Virus record (IMG/VR): IMGVR_UViG_2663763286_000020
Coordinates: 1 to 5,281 of that record
DNA length: 5,281 nucleotides
Reading direction: 5' to 3' (one strand)
Source: a virus
Taxonomy: Duplodnaviria > Heunggongvirae > Uroviricota > Caudoviricetes
Under the pieces are notes generated by a model, which worked only from the letters and a program-made list of their open reading frames with translations, did not search any database and had not been told where the DNA came from. Below, piece by piece: positions 1-5,281 of the stretch; positions within the stretch are counted from its first letter, which is position 1; the number at the start of each line of letters is the position of its first letter. A program made the position numbers and the translations under genes.

Positions 1-3
1 CTG

Positions 4-807
4 GTGGTTGTTCAGAATCAGTCTGATGAAATTCCCGTTCTGGAATGGCAGGGAGTGCGTGTAGTGACAACTAAGATCCTTGCTAAGGGGTATGGGACAG
101 ATGCGGATAACATCAAGAAGAACTTTTCCCGTAATGCTGAACGTTTTTGTGAAGGCAAGCATTTCTATAAAGTTATTGGAGATGATTTGAACAATTTGCG
201 GGTGACTTTAAGTAACTCACAAAATCCTATCTCTCCTAAAGCCCGCTCACTCATCCTCTGGACGGAACGCGGCGCAGCCCGCCACGCTAAAATGCTCGAA
301 ACCGATCAGGCATGGGCATTCTTTGAAAAACTGGAAGACAGCTACTTCCGGCAAAAAGAACAGCAACCGGTTGCAATCCCCCAGACGCTTCCAGAAGCTC
401 TGCGCCTGGCTGCCGAACTGGCTGAACAAAAGCAGCTTCTGGAACAGAAAGCCCACCAGCTAAATCAGCAGCTGGTGGCCGCCGCTCCTAAAGTCGATTT
501 TGCCGACCGGGTATCAGTAGCTAAAGGGATCCTGATTGGGAATTTTGCAAAGGTTGTTGGACTTAAGCAAAACGCGCTGTTTGTCTGGTTACGGGAGAAC
601 GGCATCCTGATAGCGTCCGGTGGACGTAAAAATGTGCCGTTCCAGCAGTACATCAACGCGGGGTATTTCACGGTGAAAGAAGTGGTGCTGGATGATGAAG
701 ATGGCTACCAGATACGGTTGACGCCTCAATTAACGGGTAAAGGCCAGCAGTGGTTGACGCGTAAACTGCTCGATGCTGGCTTGTTAAAACCGGTGGCGGC
801 TGAATAA
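4..807 (+). CDS. Antirepressor-family protein, left paralog: N-terminal ORF6N/KilA-N-like module plus C-terminal KilAC-like antirepressor domain. The frame is open from base 1, so the start may be GTG at 4 or lie upstream of the window.
   Basis: 267-codon ORF ending TAA 805-807. N-terminal motifs (LAKGYGTD..NIKKNFSRNAERFCEGKHFYKV..LWTERGAARHAKML..AWAFFEKLEDSYF) and C-terminal motifs (LPEALRLAAE..KGILIGNFAKVVGL..GILIASGGRKNVPFQQYINAGYFTVKEV) fit that architecture by recall, not by a database hit. Bases 1-3 are CTG where the right-hand paralog has ATG. Confidence 0.8.
   Translation: MVVQNQSDEIPVLEWQGVRVVTTKILAKGYGTDADNIKKNFSRNAERFCEGKHFYKVIGDDLNNLRVTLSNSQNPISPKARSLILWTERGAARHAKMLETDQAWAFFEKLEDSYFRQKEQQPVAIPQTLPEALRLAAELAEQKQLLEQKAHQLNQQLVAAAPKVDFADRVSVAKGILIGNFAKVVGLKQNALFVWLRENGILIASGGRKNVPFQQYINAGYFTVKEVVLDDEDGYQIRLTPQLTGKGQQWLTRKLLDAGLLKPVAAE
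256..807. repeat. Left arm of a long inverted repeat (3' about 550 bp of the antirepressor-like gene); partner is about 4478-5029.
   Basis: Spot comparison of segments 241-540 with the reverse complement of 4741-5050 shows 0-4 substitutions per 60 nt (about 95-97% identity), mostly synonymous. Boundaries are approximate; no full alignment was computed. Confidence 0.8.
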
Positions 808-814
808 TGGAAGA

Positions 815-836
815 ATGCCCGGTTGATGCCGGGCAT
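815..836. terminator. Candidate bidirectional intrinsic terminator between the convergent antirepressor-like gene and c1.
   Basis: Perfect hairpin ATGCCCGG-ttgatg-CCGGGCAT (8-bp GC-rich stem, 6-nt loop), 8 nt after the TAA of the plus ORF and 3 nt before the c1 stop. It is followed by AATTTATT on the plus strand; the U-tract is only moderate in both directions. Confidence 0.5.
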
Positions 837-839
837 AAT

Positions 840-1691
840 TTATTGCGCGCTTTCGGGGTTGTCGTTTACTGGCTGCCCCTTCTTGGTTTTACGGCTGCGC
901 GTAACTGATGCGGCTGATTTGACCTTTTTCTCTTCGCGAGTGATGGCAATTTGTTTTTTTACATTTTCAATATCTGCCAGGCGATATATTTTTGCCTGCG
1001 GCCAGCGGTCGCAGATGATCGGTTCTATAGAGTCATAAAGGCTAAATTTTGCTTTCTCGAATTCACCGTTGATGATGATTCCATCACGGAGAGTTTCATC
1101 GCAGATAAACACACCACACAGCGGCACATGGTAACTAACTGATTTACCATCATTGTAGTTAGGGCTACTAGAAATGTAATGGACGCGCAGCATTGTTTCG
1201 CTAAAGCCGTGTACGCGCATACGGAATTTTTCATCCTCCGGGTACTGCTTCATTAGCTCTTTTGTTGCTTCCAGGTTCTCTATGTATTTCGCACTGTGCT
1301 CATTGATCCCCGCGCTTTTTTGGATGCGAATGTCCTTATCAATCAGATGAATAATGCGGCCAGCGGTCATGTTGACGCTGTTCACAGCTTCTGTCTGATA
1401 AGTTGTAACCTTACGCACACCGCGAAGGGTGTTAGGCACTGGATATAAAATAGTCTTTGGGATATTGAGGTCTGGGTACTGTTCCAGTTCCCGCGCCATT
1501 AAAGTCCATTTATCAATTTCAGCCTGAATGCTGTCAGTTTCTTTGAACGGTAGAACGACAACCGGGCGTACAGGACGACCGTCGCTGGCTGTATCAACGT
1601 GTTGGGCGCGTGCAACAGCTTTTTTTAGAAAGAGATCCCTGAAGCTGACGAACTCCTGGTACAGTTGTTCGCCGTAGACATAATTTATCAT
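840..1691 (-). CDS. c1: C1 immunity repressor of phage P1 type.
   Basis: 283-aa product MINYVYGEQLYQEFVSFRDLFLKK... matches recalled P1 C1 in length and sequence. ATG at 1689-1691 (complement) is preceded by a strong SD GGAGGAGG with 4-nt spacing; stop TAA at 840-842 (complement). Confidence 0.95.
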   Translation of the reverse strand: MINYVYGEQLYQEFVSFRDLFLKKAVARAQHVDTASDGRPVRPVVVLPFKETDSIQAEIDKWTLMARELEQYPDLNIPKTILYPVPNTLRGVRKVTTYQTEAVNSVNMTAGRIIHLIDKDIRIQKSAGINEHSAKYIENLEATKELMKQYPEDEKFRMRVHGFSETMLRVHYISSSPNYNDGKSVSYHVPLCGVFICDETLRDGIIINGEFEKAKFSLYDSIEPIICDRWPQAKIYRLADIENVKKQIAITREEKKVKSAASVTRSRKTKKGQPVNDNPESAQ

Positions 1692-1713
1692 TGATCCTCC
1701 TCCAGAATTGACA

Positions 1714-1756
1714 TGGCCAACAACTCACAGCGGATTACACTGGGAGTTGTTGGCCA
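1714..1756 (-). repeat. Perfect 13-bp inverted repeat with 17-nt spacer in the c1 leader, about 23 nt upstream of the c1 start.
   Basis: TGGCCAACAACTC (1714-1726) pairs with GAGTTGTTGGCCA (1744-1756). Not followed by a U-tract on either strand, so not a classic terminator. Function unknown. Confidence 0.6.
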
Positions 1757-1758
1757 CC

Positions 1759-1802
1759 ATTATAGAAGGATCCAACGAAAATAATAGATTTATTAGTGCA
1801 TT
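1759..1802 (-). promoter_or_regulatory. Candidate c1-proximal promoter with a C1 operator-like site at the -35 position.
   Basis: A perfect TATAAT on the minus strand (complement of 1759-1764). 22 bp upstream, at 1786-1802, the minus-strand sequence AATGCACTAATAAATCT matches 14/17 of the P1 C1 operator consensus ATTGCTCTAATAAATTT. The site overlaps the coi stop codon. Confidence 0.45.
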
Positions 1803-2011
1803 TATTGTGAGTCTGGCTGGTTAGTGGCCATGAGATATTCGATTGTGTCAGTGAGATCATCCAGGTCGTCTTGGGTGATGCGGTACTCCTGATTGGATAT
1901 CTTTGAGTAGTGTTCAGCAATGGCGCGGGCAGCGTCGGTTTCGGCGGGGTCTACAGATAAAGCGTTAGAGCAATGTCTAACGTCGTCGATGGTTGGTGGA
2001 ATGAAAGCCAT
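1802..2011 (-). CDS. coi: Coi-like C1 inactivator, a small acidic protein co-oriented with and upstream of c1.
   Basis: 69-aa ORF MAFIPPTIDDVRHCSNALSVDPAETDAARAIAEHYSK... in the position and of the size of P1 coi. ATG at 2009-2011 (complement). Assigned by synteny and size; the sequence was not verified against a database. Confidence 0.8.
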   Translation of the reverse strand: MAFIPPTIDDVRHCSNALSVDPAETDAARAIAEHYSKISNQEYRITQDDLDDLTDTIEYLMATNQPDSQ

Positions 2012-2245
2012 AATTATGCCTCACTGTATTGACAACACAGAGCCTGAAGCTCTGACCTACTGTTTCACCCATGATCCATGCTGGGGTAATCTAACAACAT
2101 TGCGCTGTGTGTAAGATGAGCAATGCATAGCTGTAATGCCGTTGTATAAGGTTTCCCTGTTTGCTCATTTCCTTCTGAGCCGCTCTACAACGCTGAAGAC
2201 ACATTAAATAGTGAATCCAAAGTCGTATTACGAAACGGCGGCAAA

Positions 2246-2272
2246 ACTATAATTTATTAGAGCAATTGTCAA
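2246..2272 (-). promoter_or_regulatory. Minus-strand promoter for the coi-c1 operon with an overlapping C1 operator (the P99a/Op99a-type arrangement of P1).
   Basis: On the minus strand, a -35 TTGACA (complement of 2267-2272) is followed directly by ATTGCTCTAATAAATTA (complement of 2250-2266), a 16/17 match to the C1 operator consensus. A -10-like TATAGT (complement of 2246-2251) follows with 15-nt spacing. Confidence 0.65.
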
Positions 2273-2332
2273 ACAACTATGAAAAACAATCCAGTTTTTG
2301 GCTGGTGGAGTGGGATTTTTCTCTCAAAATTT

Positions 2333-2349
2333 ATTGCTCTAATAATTCT
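2333..2349 (+). promoter_or_regulatory. C1 operator-like site in plus orientation, about 45 bp from loxP.
   Basis: ATTGCTCTAATAATTCT matches 15/17 of the consensus ATTGCTCTAATAAATTT, with the first 13 positions perfect. Confidence 0.6.
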
Positions 2350-2392
2350 TGATTTTTATGCGTAGCTGGACGTAAACTCCTCTTCAGACCTA

Positions 2393-2426
2393 ATAACTTC
2401 GTATAGCATACATTATACGAAGTTAT
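2393..2426. other. loxP: loxP site-specific recombination site (Cre target).
   Basis: ATAACTTCGTATA-GCATACAT-TATACGAAGTTAT: perfect 13-bp inverted repeats around the asymmetric 8-bp spacer. This is an exact match to wild-type loxP (spacer reads ATGTATGC on the other strand). Confidence 0.97.
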
Positions 2427-2498
2427 CTTAAGGGTTATTGAACATGATTAATTTACCTGTAAATCCATACAGTTCAATACCTTATCAGGTCAAATAGT

Positions 2499-2518
2499 GA
2501 TCACTTGATCATTTGATC
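2499..2518 (+). promoter_or_regulatory. Dam-methylation (GATC) cluster in the cre upstream promoter region.
   Basis: Three GATC sites at 2499-2502, 2507-2510 and 2515-2518 (8-bp spacing) inside palindromic TGATCA/TTGATCAA units, with TTGATC hexamers resembling a -35 element. P1 cre is known to have an upstream promoter whose -35 region carries Dam sites. Confidence 0.6.
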
Positions 2519-2523
2519 AAGGT

Positions 2524-2584
2524 TGCGCTACGTAAAATCTGCGAAATGTTGGCAGTGTTAGTGCTCCAGATTTCGCGTAGCGCA
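2524..2584. repeat. Long imperfect inverted repeat between the GATC cluster and the small ORF upstream of cre.
   Basis: TGCGCTACG (2524-2532) pairs with CGTAGCGCA (2576-2584), and AAATCTG (2535-2541) pairs with CAGATTT (2567-2573), with a 2-nt internal mismatch and a 25-nt loop. No U-tract follows. Confidence 0.5.
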
Positions 2585-2615
2585 CTTACCACCACCAATC
2601 AATCAGAGGTGAAAA

Positions 2616-2837
2616 ATGGGATATTCAGCTGCTAAAGTGTCCACTCATATTGAGCTTGAGAAAAACCGTGGTTACTGGCGGGCAAAAGGGTTTGATCGTG
2701 ATAGTTGTCAACTGTCATTATCGCGCGGTGAAGAGAAAATAGAACGCACGCGCGGTCGCTGGCGTTTCTATGACGAGAACCATAAACAGGTAAAGGCAGA
2801 GCCGATCCTGTACACTTTACTTAAAACCATTATCTGA
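2616..2837 (+). CDS. Small basic hypothetical protein (73 aa) immediately upstream of cre, probably co-transcribed with it.
   Basis: ATG at 2616 is preceded by a good SD AGAGGTGA. The product is R/K-rich (MGYSAAKVSTHIELEKNRGYWRAKGFDRD...). Stop TGA 2835-2837 lies 7 nt before the cre ATG. Function not recognised. Confidence 0.5.
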   Translation: MGYSAAKVSTHIELEKNRGYWRAKGFDRDSCQLSLSRGEEKIERTRGRWRFYDENHKQVKAEPILYTLLKTII

Positions 2838-2844
2838 GTGTTAA

Positions 2845-3876
2845 ATGTCCAATTTACTGACCGTACACCAAAATTTGCCTGCATTACCGGTCGATGCAAC
2901 GAGTGATGAGGTTCGCAAGAACCTGATGGACATGTTCAGGGATCGCCAGGCGTTTTCTGAGCATACCTGGAAAATGCTTCTGTCCGTTTGCCGGTCGTGG
3001 GCGGCATGGTGCAAGTTGAATAACCGGAAGTGGTTTCCCGCAGAACCTGAAGATGTTCGCGATTATCTTCTATATCTTCAGGCGCGCGGTCTGGCAGTGA
3101 AAACTATCCAGCAACATTTGGGCCAGCTAAATATGCTTCATCGTCGGTCCGGTCTGCCACGACCAAGTGACAGCAATGCTGTTTCACTGGTCATGCGACG
3201 GATCCGAAAAGAAAACGTTGATGCCGGTGAGCGTGCAAAACAGGCGCTGGCGTTCGAACGCACTGATTTCGACCAGGTTCGTTCACTCATGGAAAATAGC
3301 GATCGCTGCCAGGATATACGTAATCTGGCATTTCTGGGGATTGCTTATAACACCCTGTTACGTATAGCCGAAATTTCCAGGATCAGGGTTAAAGATATCT
3401 CACGTACTGACGGTGGGAGAATGTTAATCCATATTGGCAGAACGAAAACGCTGGTTAGCACCGCTGGTGTAGAGAAGGCACTTAGCCTGGGGGTAACTAA
3501 ACTGGTTGAGCGATGGATTTCTGTCTCTGGTGTAGCTGATGATCCGAATAACTACCTGTTTTGCCGCGTCAGAAAAAATGGTGTTGCCGCGCCATCATCC
3601 ACCAGCCAGCTATCAACTCGCGCCCTGGAAGGGATTTTTGAAGCAACTCACCGATTGATTTACGGGGCAAAAGATGACTCTGGTCAGCGATACCTGGCCT
3701 GGTCTGGACATAGTGCCCGTGTCGGTGCCGCGCGAGATATGGCCCGCGCCGGAGTTTCAATACCGGAGATCATGCAAGCTGGTGGCTGGACCAACGTAAA
3801 TATTGTCATGAACTACATTCGTAACCTGGATAGTGAAACAGGGGCAATGGTGCGCCTGCTGGAAGATGGCGATTAG
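2845..3876 (+). CDS. cre: Cre tyrosine site-specific recombinase (P1 type).
   Basis: 343-aa product MSNLLTVHQNLPALPVDATSDEVRKNLMDMFRDRQAFSEHTWKMLL...GWTNVNIVMNYIRNLDSETGAMVRLLEDGD recognised as P1 Cre. Its cognate loxP lies 418 bp upstream. Confidence 0.98.
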   Translation: MSNLLTVHQNLPALPVDATSDEVRKNLMDMFRDRQAFSEHTWKMLLSVCRSWAAWCKLNNRKWFPAEPEDVRDYLLYLQARGLAVKTIQQHLGQLNMLHRRSGLPRPSDSNAVSLVMRRIRKENVDAGERAKQALAFERTDFDQVRSLMENSDRCQDIRNLAFLGIAYNTLLRIAEISRIRVKDISRTDGGRMLIHIGRTKTLVSTAGVEKALSLGVTKLVERWISVSGVADDPNNYLFCRVRKNGVAAPSSTSQLSTRALEGIFEATHRLIYGAKDDSGQRYLAWSGHSARVGAARDMARAGVSIPEIMQAGGWTNVNIVMNYIRNLDSETGAMVRLLEDGD

Positions 3877-3893
3877 CCATTAACGCGTAAATT

Positions 3894-3910
3894 ATTGCTC
3901 TAATTCATTG
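3894..3910 (+). promoter_or_regulatory. C1 operator-like site between cre and the downstream small ORF (position of P1 Op2-type operators).
   Basis: ATTGCTCTAATTCATTG matches 14/17 of the consensus, with the first 11 positions perfect. Confidence 0.45.
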
Positions 3911-3926
3911 ATATTTATGGTGACAT

Positions 3927-4238
3927 ATGAGAAAGGATTTCAACATCGACGGAAAATATGTAGTGCTGTCTGTAAGCACTAATATTCAGTCGCCAGCCGT
4001 CATTGTCACTGTAAAGCTGAGCGATAGAATGCCTGATATTGACTCAATATCCGTTGCGTTCCCTGTCAAAAGTATGCGTGGTGCTGAACATTTCGTGATT
4101 AACGCCTCCGAGGAAGAAGCACGGCGCGGTTTTGCTAAAGTGATGTCTGAGTTTGGCGAATTTTTGTGGCACGTTGACAAAGCCCTCTCAATCAGTTCAG
4201 CAAGGTCCAAAGCGTTAACAGCTTCCATGATGAAATAA
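3927..4238 (+). CDS. Hypothetical 103-aa protein downstream of cre, in the position occupied by cra in P1. The sequence itself is not recognised.
   Basis: ATG 3927 with a weak SD (GGTGA, short spacing). Residue composition looks protein-like (..SEEEARRGFAKVMSEFGEFLWHVDKALS..). An operator-like site lies 17 bp upstream. Preferred over the overlapping minus-strand ORF 3986-4318, which contains a terminator hairpin. Confidence 0.5.
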   Translation: MRKDFNIDGKYVVLSVSTNIQSPAVIVTVKLSDRMPDIDSISVAFPVKSMRGAEHFVINASEEEARRGFAKVMSEFGEFLWHVDKALSISSARSKALTASMMK

Positions 4239-4262
4239 AAAAGCCTGGCAAGGAGCCAGGCT
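4233..4262 (-). terminator. Intrinsic terminator oriented for minus-strand transcripts.
   Basis: Hairpin AGCCTGG-caaggag-CCAGGCT (4242-4262). On the minus strand it is followed by TTTTTATTT (plus-strand A-tract 4233-4241). On the plus strand it sits 3 nt after the 4236-4238 stop codon but has no downstream T-tract. Confidence 0.6.
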
Positions 4263-4368
4263 GCACAAAAGAGCGGGTTTGTATTCCGCATACAATCAAT
4301 CAAGAAGGAGTATAGCACACAGGTACTGAAGAGAAAAAATGTGATTCGCGATAAATAAAATAGCCACT

Positions 4369-4412
4369 ATTGCTATAATTAATTGTTATAATTGAGTTGT
4401 GGCTTTAGTCAA
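4369..4412 (-). promoter_or_regulatory. Promoter island with a C1 operator-like site: minus-strand promoter TTGACT-16-TATAAC, plus two plus-strand TATAAT boxes.
   Basis: Minus strand: -35 TTGACT (complement of 4407-4412), 16-nt spacer, -10 TATAAC (complement of 4385-4390). ATTGCTATAATTAATTG (4369-4385) matches 14/17 of the operator consensus and overlaps the -10 and predicted start. Plus-strand TATAAT at 4374-4379 and 4387-4392. Confidence 0.45.
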
Positions 4413-4451
4413 CTACGAAGACATTGCCATTATAGACTCCGTGACATCATT

Positions 4452-4475
4452 GGCGGCCGAAAGGCCGCCTTTTTT
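4452..4475 (+). terminator. Rho-independent terminator for plus-strand transcripts, at the inner edge of the right inverted-repeat arm.
   Basis: GGCGGCC-gaaa-GGCCGCC, a perfect 7-bp GC stem with a GNRA-type tetraloop, followed by six T (4470-4475). It lies 2 nt from the stop codon of the convergent minus-strand gene. Confidence 0.8.
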
Positions 4476-4477
4476 AA

Positions 4478-5029
4478 TCATTCAGCCGCCACCGGTTTTA
4501 ACAAGCCAGCATCGAGCAGTTTACGCGTCAACCACTGTTGGCCTTTCCCCGTTAATTGAGGCGTCAGCCGTATCTGATAGCCATCTTCATCATCCAGCAC
4601 CACTTCTTTCACTGTGAAATATCCGGCGTTTATGTACTGCTGAAACGGTACATTTTTACGTCCGCCGGACGCAATCAGGATGCCGTTCTCCCGTAACCAG
4701 GCAAACAGCGCATTTTGCTTAAGTCCAACAACCTTTGCAAAATTCCCAATCAGGATCCCCTTAGCCACTGATACCCGGTCGGCAAAATCGACCTTAGGGG
4801 CGGCGGCCACCAGCTGCTGATTTAGCTGGTGGGCTTTCTGTTCCAGAAGTTGCTTTTGTTCAGCCAGCTCGGCAGCCAGGCGCAGAGCTTCGGGAAGCGT
4901 CTGAGGGATTGCGACCGGTTGCTGTTCTTTTTGCCGGAAGTAGCTGTCTTCCAGTTTTTCAAAGAATGCCCATGCCTGATCGGTTTCGATCATTTTAGCG
5001 TGGCGGGCTGCGCCGCGTTCCGTCCAGAG
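4478..5029. repeat. Right arm of the long inverted repeat (partner of about 256-807).
   Basis: Reverse complement of 4741-5050 aligns colinearly with 241-540 at high identity (see left arm). Boundary is approximate. Confidence 0.8.
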
Positions 5030-5281
5030 AGTGAGGTTTCTGGCGTTCTTACCAACAGAGTTACTAAAAGTAACTCTGTTCTTAAATTCCTTTAATTTTG
5101 AACCAGTTAAAAGAAAGTAGTGTTTACCTTCTTCAAAGCGATCGGAGTTGCAAGACAAATTTTTACGAATATTGCCTTCATCGGTTCCGTACCCCTTAGC
5201 AAGAGTTTCGGTTGTTACGACACGTACTCCCTGCCATTCCAGAACGGGAATTTCATCAGACTGATTCTGAACAACCACCAT
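4478..5281 (-). CDS. Antirepressor-family protein, right paralog (ORF6N/KilA-N-like N-terminus plus KilAC-like C-terminus), inverted relative to the left copy.
   Basis: 267-aa ORF starting with ATG at 5279-5281 (complement), exactly at the window edge, with stop TGA at 4478-4480 (complement). The C-terminal ~180 residues differ from the left copy at only 2 positions. N-terminal motifs RFEEGKHYFLLTGSKLKEFKN and LWTERGAARHAKMI are typical of this domain family. Confidence 0.85.
   Translation of the reverse strand: MVVVQNQSDEIPVLEWQGVRVVTTETLAKGYGTDEGNIRKNLSCNSDRFEEGKHYFLLTGSKLKEFKNRVTFSNSVGKNARNLTLWTERGAARHAKMIETDQAWAFFEKLEDSYFRQKEQQPVAIPQTLPEALRLAAELAEQKQLLEQKAHQLNQQLVAAAPKVDFADRVSVAKGILIGNFAKVVGLKQNALFAWLRENGILIASGGRKNVPFQQYINAGYFTVKEVVLDDEDGYQIRLTPQLTGKGQQWLTRKLLDAGLLKPVAAE

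Follow-up and report, generated by a model that had tools for sequence, protein, structure and literature searches.

The convergent antirepressor genes that bracket the immunity core of a P1-like phage-plasmid are probably the promoter-distal ends of two accessory operons of the immI type, which would act as independently locked antirepressor switches, and not the ends of an invertible segment. The DNA analyzed here (the window; IMG/VR record IMGVR_UViG_2663763286_000020, 5,281 bp) is the entire contig JXWD01000100.1 of assembly GCA_000948825.1. It carries a P1-type core with the primary repressor gene c1, coi, loxP and cre, and the ant gene on either side of this core is cut at the contig end. 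An initial annotation of the window had read the two genes as substrates for a RecA-dependent inversion of immC, loxP and cre. A single short contig carries no information on its own orientation within the replicon. The arms comprise the following features.

1-807, plus strand: left ant1/ant2-type antirepressor gene, 3' 807 nt (ORF 4-807); based on open reading frame (ORF), domains and relatives
61-255, plus strand: hypervariable cassette in the ORF6N domain of the left gene; counterpart in the right copy at ~5030-5221
4478-5281, minus strand: right ant1/ant2-type antirepressor gene, 3' 804 nt; based on ORF, domains and relatives

Both arms encode 267 aa (4-807 on the plus strand, 4478-5281 on the minus strand), are colinear and converge on the core. 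Each ORF contains a central ORF6N domain (PF10543) and a C-terminal ANT/KilAC domain (PF03374; E-values 3e-31 and 6e-33). The right Ant ORF had no sequence match in the PDB. ORFs, domains and alignment agree with the earlier description of inverted paralogs transcribed toward the core. The arms form an inverted repeat of 569 nt at 95% identity (250-818 and 4467-5035) and a second one at 77% (2-166 and 5116-5280). Aligned in full, they are 84.7% identical over 836 columns and strongly mosaic: identity is ~98% in columns 1-60, 45-57% in columns 61-255, and 94-96% in columns 256-810. This last segment, the 3' 555 nt, is ~95% identical overall, in line with the 95-97% first estimated for some 550 bp, and the longest identical stretch between the arms is 76 nt. 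The copies are also diverged and mosaic as described, with 45-57% identity in columns 61-255 against 94-98% on both sides. Across the C-terminal 182 codons, the nonsynonymous rate (dN) is 0.0048 and the synonymous rate (dS) 0.194, a dN/dS of ~0.025 for the KilAC half. The arms are therefore old, have not been recently homogenized and are under strong purifying selection.

The full-length genes can be read in close relatives, which are complete plasmids 97.7-99% identical to the window. They include the loci designated L001 (Escherichia coli 98E11, plasmid pO26_98E11_1; NZ_AP027182.1) and L002 (Escherichia albertii, plasmid pEA24_3). The left arm of the window is 99% identical to the left arms of L002, L008 and L011, and the right arms of the window and NZ_AP027182.1 match at 100% identity. 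In L001 and L002 the ant genes span 1113-1116 bp (370-371 aa), each with icd ahead of it, and the inverted repeat in L001 extends to 1354 nt at 92%. In these relatives, icd is 222 bp long and overlaps ant1 by 4 nt. The internal start of Ant2, Met84 with an AAGGAGG Shine-Dalgarno sequence, is kept in both flanking modules of L001 and lies 60 nt (20 codons) upstream of the window ends. Because the genes are 1113 bp long and Met84 falls outside the window, the start codons within the window are not real starts. Equating the 267-aa ORFs with P1 Ant2 (264 aa) was considered and rejected, as the P1 Ant2 start aligns to Met84, beyond the window ends.

Each flanking gene belongs to an operon of the immI type. 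Upstream of both flanking icd genes in L001, Rfam identifies a C4 RNA (RF01695; 75.9 and 71.7 bits, threshold 45). Alignment to the annotated P1 immI gives the module order as C1 operator, a1/b1, c4, a2/b2 over the icd ribosome-binding site, icd and ant1/ant2, with a predicted C1 operator of the ATTGCTCTAATAAATT type upstream of every aligned module. The leader of the right module in L001 contains the Rfam c4-a1b1 target element. The leader of the left module (L001 9230-9307) matches Rfam isrK instead (60.8 bits, threshold 50) and not c4-a1b1; by its sequence, the left module looks like a chimera of a Gifsy-type leader and a P1-type icd-ant. Relative to P1 Ant1, the C-terminal 110 aa are near-identical (85-87% nucleotide identity to P1 ant over 336 nt), and the Ant1-specific N-terminal part and the KilAC part are close to those of P1 and M4 Ant. 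No Pfam domain is detected in P1 Ant1 in the region matching the ORF6N domain of the flanking Ants. The initial annotation had likened the genes to kilA; operon context and end-to-end homology identify them as homologues of immI ant1/ant2, with icd and a C4 RNA ahead of each gene.

The insertion sites are exact with respect to P1. On one side the left module abuts the stop codon of pacB, on the other the 24-nt spacer that precedes the c1 stop, and the right module precisely replaces ref (P1 2070-2628), with mat coming next. P1 itself has neither flanking gene, so the layout does differ from canonical P1 as had been supposed. The core remains colinear with P1, however, at 98.4% nucleotide identity for window 841-2409 against the P1 right end and 95.8% for window 2410-4475 against P1 1-2069. 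What had been called a rearranged P1-family variant thus reduces to one insertion at the pacB-c1 junction and one replacement of ref. The inverted bracket results from the landing sites and orientations of the two modules. NZ_AP027182.1 contains four complete c4-icd-ant modules (L003 13640-15160; L004 3230-4815, 8486-10060 and 35229-36734), each with an Rfam C4 match of 68-76 bits. One is the canonical immI beside kilA-repL, two flank immC, and one lies downstream of ban (dnaB-like).

The pairing between C4 and its targets was compared in 21 modules, namely 18 that flank the core in nine plasmids, the remaining two of NZ_AP027182.1 and the one of P1, with c4 loops extracted by alignment columns. 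Loop a' against a1/a2 and loop b' against b1/b2 show 0 mismatches in all 21. The modules fall into eight specificity types, and the loops of one type show 1-6 mismatches against the targets of any other. Since pairing is kept across all eight types, the changes represent compensatory covariation at three sites at once. In the sampled plasmids, the left position holds two types with an IsrK leader and the right position four with a P1 leader.

The Ant proteins vary as well. The 5' (ORF6N) part of ant occurs as discrete allele classes, A to F, which lie on the left in some plasmids and on the right in others and assort independently of C4 type. The left and right copies carry different ORF6N alleles in 11/11 elements (the window and 10 plasmids), the window combining class A on the left with class B on the right. 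Among these plasmids, 18 of the 20 flanking ant genes are annotated as intact (at least 352 aa). The two annotated as short fragments, presumably frameshifted, are the left ant of L009 (1195-2307) and the right ant of L013 (5974-7086); both belong to class D, at opposite positions in the two plasmids.

The proposed mechanism follows the P1/P7 immI precedent. One operon would have entered the backbone at the junction of the pacB stop with the end of c1, and the other would have replaced ref in the opposite orientation, leaving the inverted arrangement as a by-product of module landing sites with no programmed inversion switch. Within each module, its own C4 RNA would block translation of icd and thereby also of ant, since ant expression would depend on icd translation as it does in P1/P7, and the operator would place the module under additional C1 control. 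A module escaping its own C4 lock would then allow its Ant to inactivate C1. Different C4 loop/target pairs, together with different Ant central domains, may make these modules independent switches that do not cross-repress. Several orthogonal modules could widen the range of P1-like relatives silenced by the prophage or overcome by an incoming genome. Binding of Ant to C1, orthogonality in vivo and this ecological role are what we infer by analogy with P1/P7.

Three observations weigh against this interpretation. The window does not reach c4, icd or the 5' part of ant1, whose presence is taken from close relatives rather than from the source genome. The central ORF6N domain differs from the corresponding part of P1 Ant, where Pfam has no domain, so the target could be other than C1. 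Finally, the occurrence of ant alleles at either position implies homologous exchange, which would make an occasional inversion mechanistically possible.

Inversion of the core was examined directly with two 3-kb probes built from L001. Both contained the final 1.5 kb of pacB, joined in the native probe to the 1.5-kb stretch of core beside the left arm and in the inverted probe to the 1.5-kb stretch beside the right arm in reverse complement; the cut-off was 80% coverage. The native probe, used as the positive control, reached at least 80% coverage in 550 plasmid records, including records with the 1.7-kb module between its halves. The inverted junction reached this coverage in 0/703 plasmid records and 0/699 E. 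coli genomes. Each probed collection includes about 55 two-arm records (~56 and 54), all in native order. A fast flip-flop, or a fixed inverted form, is therefore excluded, because this number of two-arm records per collection should have shown both orientations; assemblies do not cover rare subpopulations within cultures.

It is thus very unlikely that the arms act as a RecA-dependent inversion substrate, either regularly or as an evolutionarily frequent event. The 3' 555 nt at 95% identity, the 76-nt identical run and the 1354-nt repeat of the full-length plasmids would offer such a substrate, and the shuffling of ant alleles between left and right positions points to homologous exchange among modules. 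Besides the missing inverted junction, the dS of 0.19 argues against recent homogenization of the arms, and the gene lost from the locus is ref, the RecA-dependent recombination enhancer of P1. The window contains no second loxP, and its core edges contain no other short inverted crossover sites of the kind used by invertases. A flip would also switch nothing, because the two edges are equivalent: each presents the 3' end of an inward-facing ant, a flip would carry the hairpins along with the core, and neither arm is crossed by a promoter-gene junction, so that promoter-gene connections would stay unchanged. Alleles of ant have been swapped between the inverted positions across plasmids, yet no inverted core was found. 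This movement would be explained by patch-type gene conversion, or by an exchange of cassettes via the conserved icd and KilAC segments; a second inversion following the first, with the intermediates lost, would be a less parsimonious alternative.

Three further explanations concern the assembly, the functional state of the genes and their targets. That the bracket arose during assembly, through mirroring or chimerism of the contig or through a mis-joined repeat, has a practically negligible probability, even though the window is a complete short draft contig whose two ends lie at equivalent points of a repeat. Divergence and mosaicism of the arms speak against it, and closed plasmids of E. 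coli, E. albertii and Escherichia fergusonii show the same layout, in agreement with the earlier view that an artefact was improbable. Decay of the flanking genes into functionless immI duplicates, carried as junk, could be read from the two fragmented class D copies among the 20. It is nonetheless a highly doubtful account, given intact ORFs in the other 18, a conserved Ant2 start and Shine-Dalgarno sequence, the low dN/dS in the KilAC half, and compensatory changes that keep each C4 loop complementary to both target copies in all eight types. Somewhat less improbable, but still unlikely, is that the accessory Ants act on the repressors of other prophages, or have an ORF6N-linked role in host takeover or defence, with the bracket position being incidental. 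The presence of ORF6N in place of the P1 Ant central region is consistent with such a role, as is its hypervariability while C1 is annotated in all these plasmids as the same repressor protein C1, 852 bp each. The leader of the left module also matches IsrK of the Gifsy-1 antirepressor locus (PMC12197685). Against this stand the closeness of the Ant1-specific N-terminal and KilAC parts to P1 and M4 Ant, and the C1 operator kept by each module, which ties it to the P1 immunity circuit.

The reading of the bracket as two accessory immI-type operons is aligned with what is known of P1/P7 immI, where differences in C4/target pairing cause heteroimmunity (PMC12197685). Gene order, the icd/ant1 overlap, the internal ant2 start with its Shine-Dalgarno sequence, the upstream C1 operator and the complementarity of the C4 a'/b' loops to duplicated a/b targets are all the same, and the Ant N-terminal and KilAC parts are closely homologous. 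In contrast to P1/P7 immI, the flanking modules are extra copies at the pacB-c1 junction and in place of ref, neither is followed by kilA-repL, and the left one has an IsrK-like leader. Their Ants contain a hypervariable central ORF6N domain and their C4 specificities are unlike that of P1. The left module also shares with Gifsy-1 isrK-orf45-anrP an IsrK-like leader followed by a small ORF and an antirepressor gene; in Gifsy-1, it is via the translation of that small ORF that IsrK controls anrP (PMC12197685). The likeness is one of sequence match, and the IsrK-like element here adjoins a C4 RNA in a P1 backbone.

Among invertible systems, the P1 C-segment/Cin, Mu G/Gin and Salmonella Hin segments resemble the bracket in being bounded by inverted repeats, in the first case within a P1-family genome. 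The bracket differs from them in having no serine invertase crossover sites, no dedicated invertase and no orientation-dependent expression. Its repeats are whole diverged genes, and the second orientation is absent from the ~110 two-arm records. P22 immI (sar antisense RNA/ant) also holds an antirepressor off with a small antisense RNA and a secondary repressor layer, as proposed here. Its RNA and protein families are unrelated, and it is present as a single copy.

Junction-specific probes applied to P1-like PLSDB records and complete E. coli genomes give the frequency of each insertion. The left ant-c1 junction is present in 384/705 P1-like PLSDB records. The right junction, between c8-Pref and ant, occurs in 56/706 of these records and in 54/5426 complete E. 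coli genomes, a recurrence of the two-arm layout that further argues against a mirrored contig. Among P1-like plasmids, the bracketed form is thus in the minority (~8%) but recurs, with examples from E. coli, E. albertii and E. fergusonii. The 242 plasmid records and 260 genomes with at least 80% window coverage were rejected as a two-arm count: they include left-arm-only elements, which pass this cut-off because positions 1-4475 make up 84.7% of the window.

Each insertion on its own has been reported. An ant gene between pacB and c1 is known from RCS47 and pTZ20_1P, and icd-ant1/2 homologues from RD-1 (the res-mod region) of pSvP1 (PMC6906374). These represent the same two kinds of insertion as found here and were treated as separate insertions in different plasmids. 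RCS47 is 97.3% identical to window 1-2130 and has an annotated 'ant' beside c1, so the gene order that the initial annotation had taken as novel was already on record. For multiple immI modules or a convergent pair around immC, the literature yielded passing mentions in PMC6906374 only; that study contains neither the convergent pair, the C4 RNAs nor their specificities, and PMC9603915 and PMC13596339 contain nothing on multiple immI modules or an inverted pair. Each insertion was known from brief mentions, and the literature searched gave no description of the convergent pair with its C4 RNAs.

About half of P1-like plasmids therefore carry an unstudied extra immI-type operon beside c1, and ~8% a second one beyond cre. 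These operons could account for patterns of heteroimmunity and coexistence in the P1-like plasmids by which resistance genes are spread in Enterobacteriaceae, and they offer a natural set of putatively orthogonal antisense-RNA/target pairs. Active inversion would have meant a new regulatory switch in the best-known phage-plasmid, which the data do not support. A more tentative proposal, possible but short of probable, is that genomes assemble up to four orthogonal c4-icd-ant locks, in which C4 and the ORF6N cassette are reshuffled independently through icd and KilAC to give a combinatorial immunity and anti-immunity arsenal. If so, this arsenal would decide coexistence, exclusion and induction among related elements, with the pair around immC traveling with c1.

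The core between the arms has the same order as in P1, namely c1, coi, C1 operators, one loxP, cra, cre and c8. The genes and sites reported initially (c1, coi, loxP and cre) were all located, with a single loxP. The ORF at 3927-4238, formerly labeled cra, is c8 by the P1 annotation, and cra lies at 2616-2837. The features are as follows.

840-1691, minus strand: c1, primary repressor of lytic functions (ORF; 98.4% nucleotide identity to the P1 c1 region; annotation)
1786-1802, minus strand: predicted C1 operator, Oc1a equivalent of the bivalent Oc1ab (consensus match and P1 annotation mapping)
1802-2011, minus strand: coi, C1 inactivator (ORF; P1 colinearity)
~1977-2204: imcB and imcA, after coi (P1 colinearity)
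2250-2266, minus strand: predicted C1 operator, Oc1d equivalent (consensus match and P1 annotation)
2333-2349, plus strand: predicted C1 operator, Oc1e equivalent (consensus match and P1 annotation)
2393-2426, plus strand: loxP, sole copy in the window (sequence match)
2616-2837, plus strand: cra, 73-aa ORF (ORF; P1 annotation)
2845-3876, plus strand: cre recombinase (ORF; P1 annotation; PF00589)
3927-4238, plus strand: c8, putative lysogeny-establishment gene, 103-aa ORF (ORF; P1 annotation)
4369-4385, plus strand: predicted Oref-type C1 operator in the ref promoter remnant, facing the 3' end of the right ant

In the window, the C1 operator consensus is matched five times, against 0.05 expected by chance. 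An operator-like site, ATTGCTCTAATTCATTG (three mismatches), lies between cre and c8 at 3894-3910; NC_005856 has no operator annotated at the P1 counterpart (~1485-1501). Three hairpins are found at or near the core edges.

815-836, no strand assigned: hairpin with a 9-bp stem between the convergent ant and c1; candidate terminator
4242-4262, minus strand: hairpin followed by a T-run; also in P1
4452-4469, plus strand: GC-rich hairpin and T6, oriented for plus-strand transcripts

Hairpin terminators had been proposed at both edges. Hairpins are indeed present at 815-836 and 4452-4469, but the right one is oriented for plus-strand transcripts. By its sequence it is the ancestral ref-leader hairpin of P1, and P1 homology stops just beyond it at window 4475. 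The closest canonical intrinsic-terminator-like site downstream of the right ant, on the minus strand, is the one at 4242-4262. The left hairpin (-19.1 / -14.6 kcal/mol, z -2.7 / -3.0) stands as a candidate terminator, but with no clear U-tract on either strand. It came in with the left module, because it is absent from the P1 spacer.

Other features of the locus concern the contig ends and the neighboring genes. The window ends, 1 and 5281, lie at equivalent codons of the two ant genes, which read CTG in the left copy and ATG in the right and thus differ; just beyond this position, ~500 nt are ~97% identical between the copies in L001. This near-identical repeat accounts for a short-read assembly break at these positions. 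On the left, the module's C1 operator overlaps the pacB stop (L001 9130-9150), and the PacB C-terminus reads ...WLNEYLL* as against ...WLNE* in P1. To the right of the right module lies a hot spot of variable gene content, with restriction-modification and SIR2-family genes among its cargo. In L001 (16400-23431), mat, a SIR2-family gene and a type III restriction-modification system lie directly outside the module, whereas L002 has EAL-domain and helix-turn-helix (HTH) genes as cargo there instead. Within the core, L012 (NZ_CP027443.1) contains at 4360-4755 an additional 396-nt ORF between cra and cre, overlapping the cre start, that is absent from the window and from P1. The loxP region (2384-2426) has near-exact matches of 33-43 nt in Lactococcus phage Q33, inside the portal gene, and in Cronobacter phage JK004, which may be engineered scars or contamination in those records.

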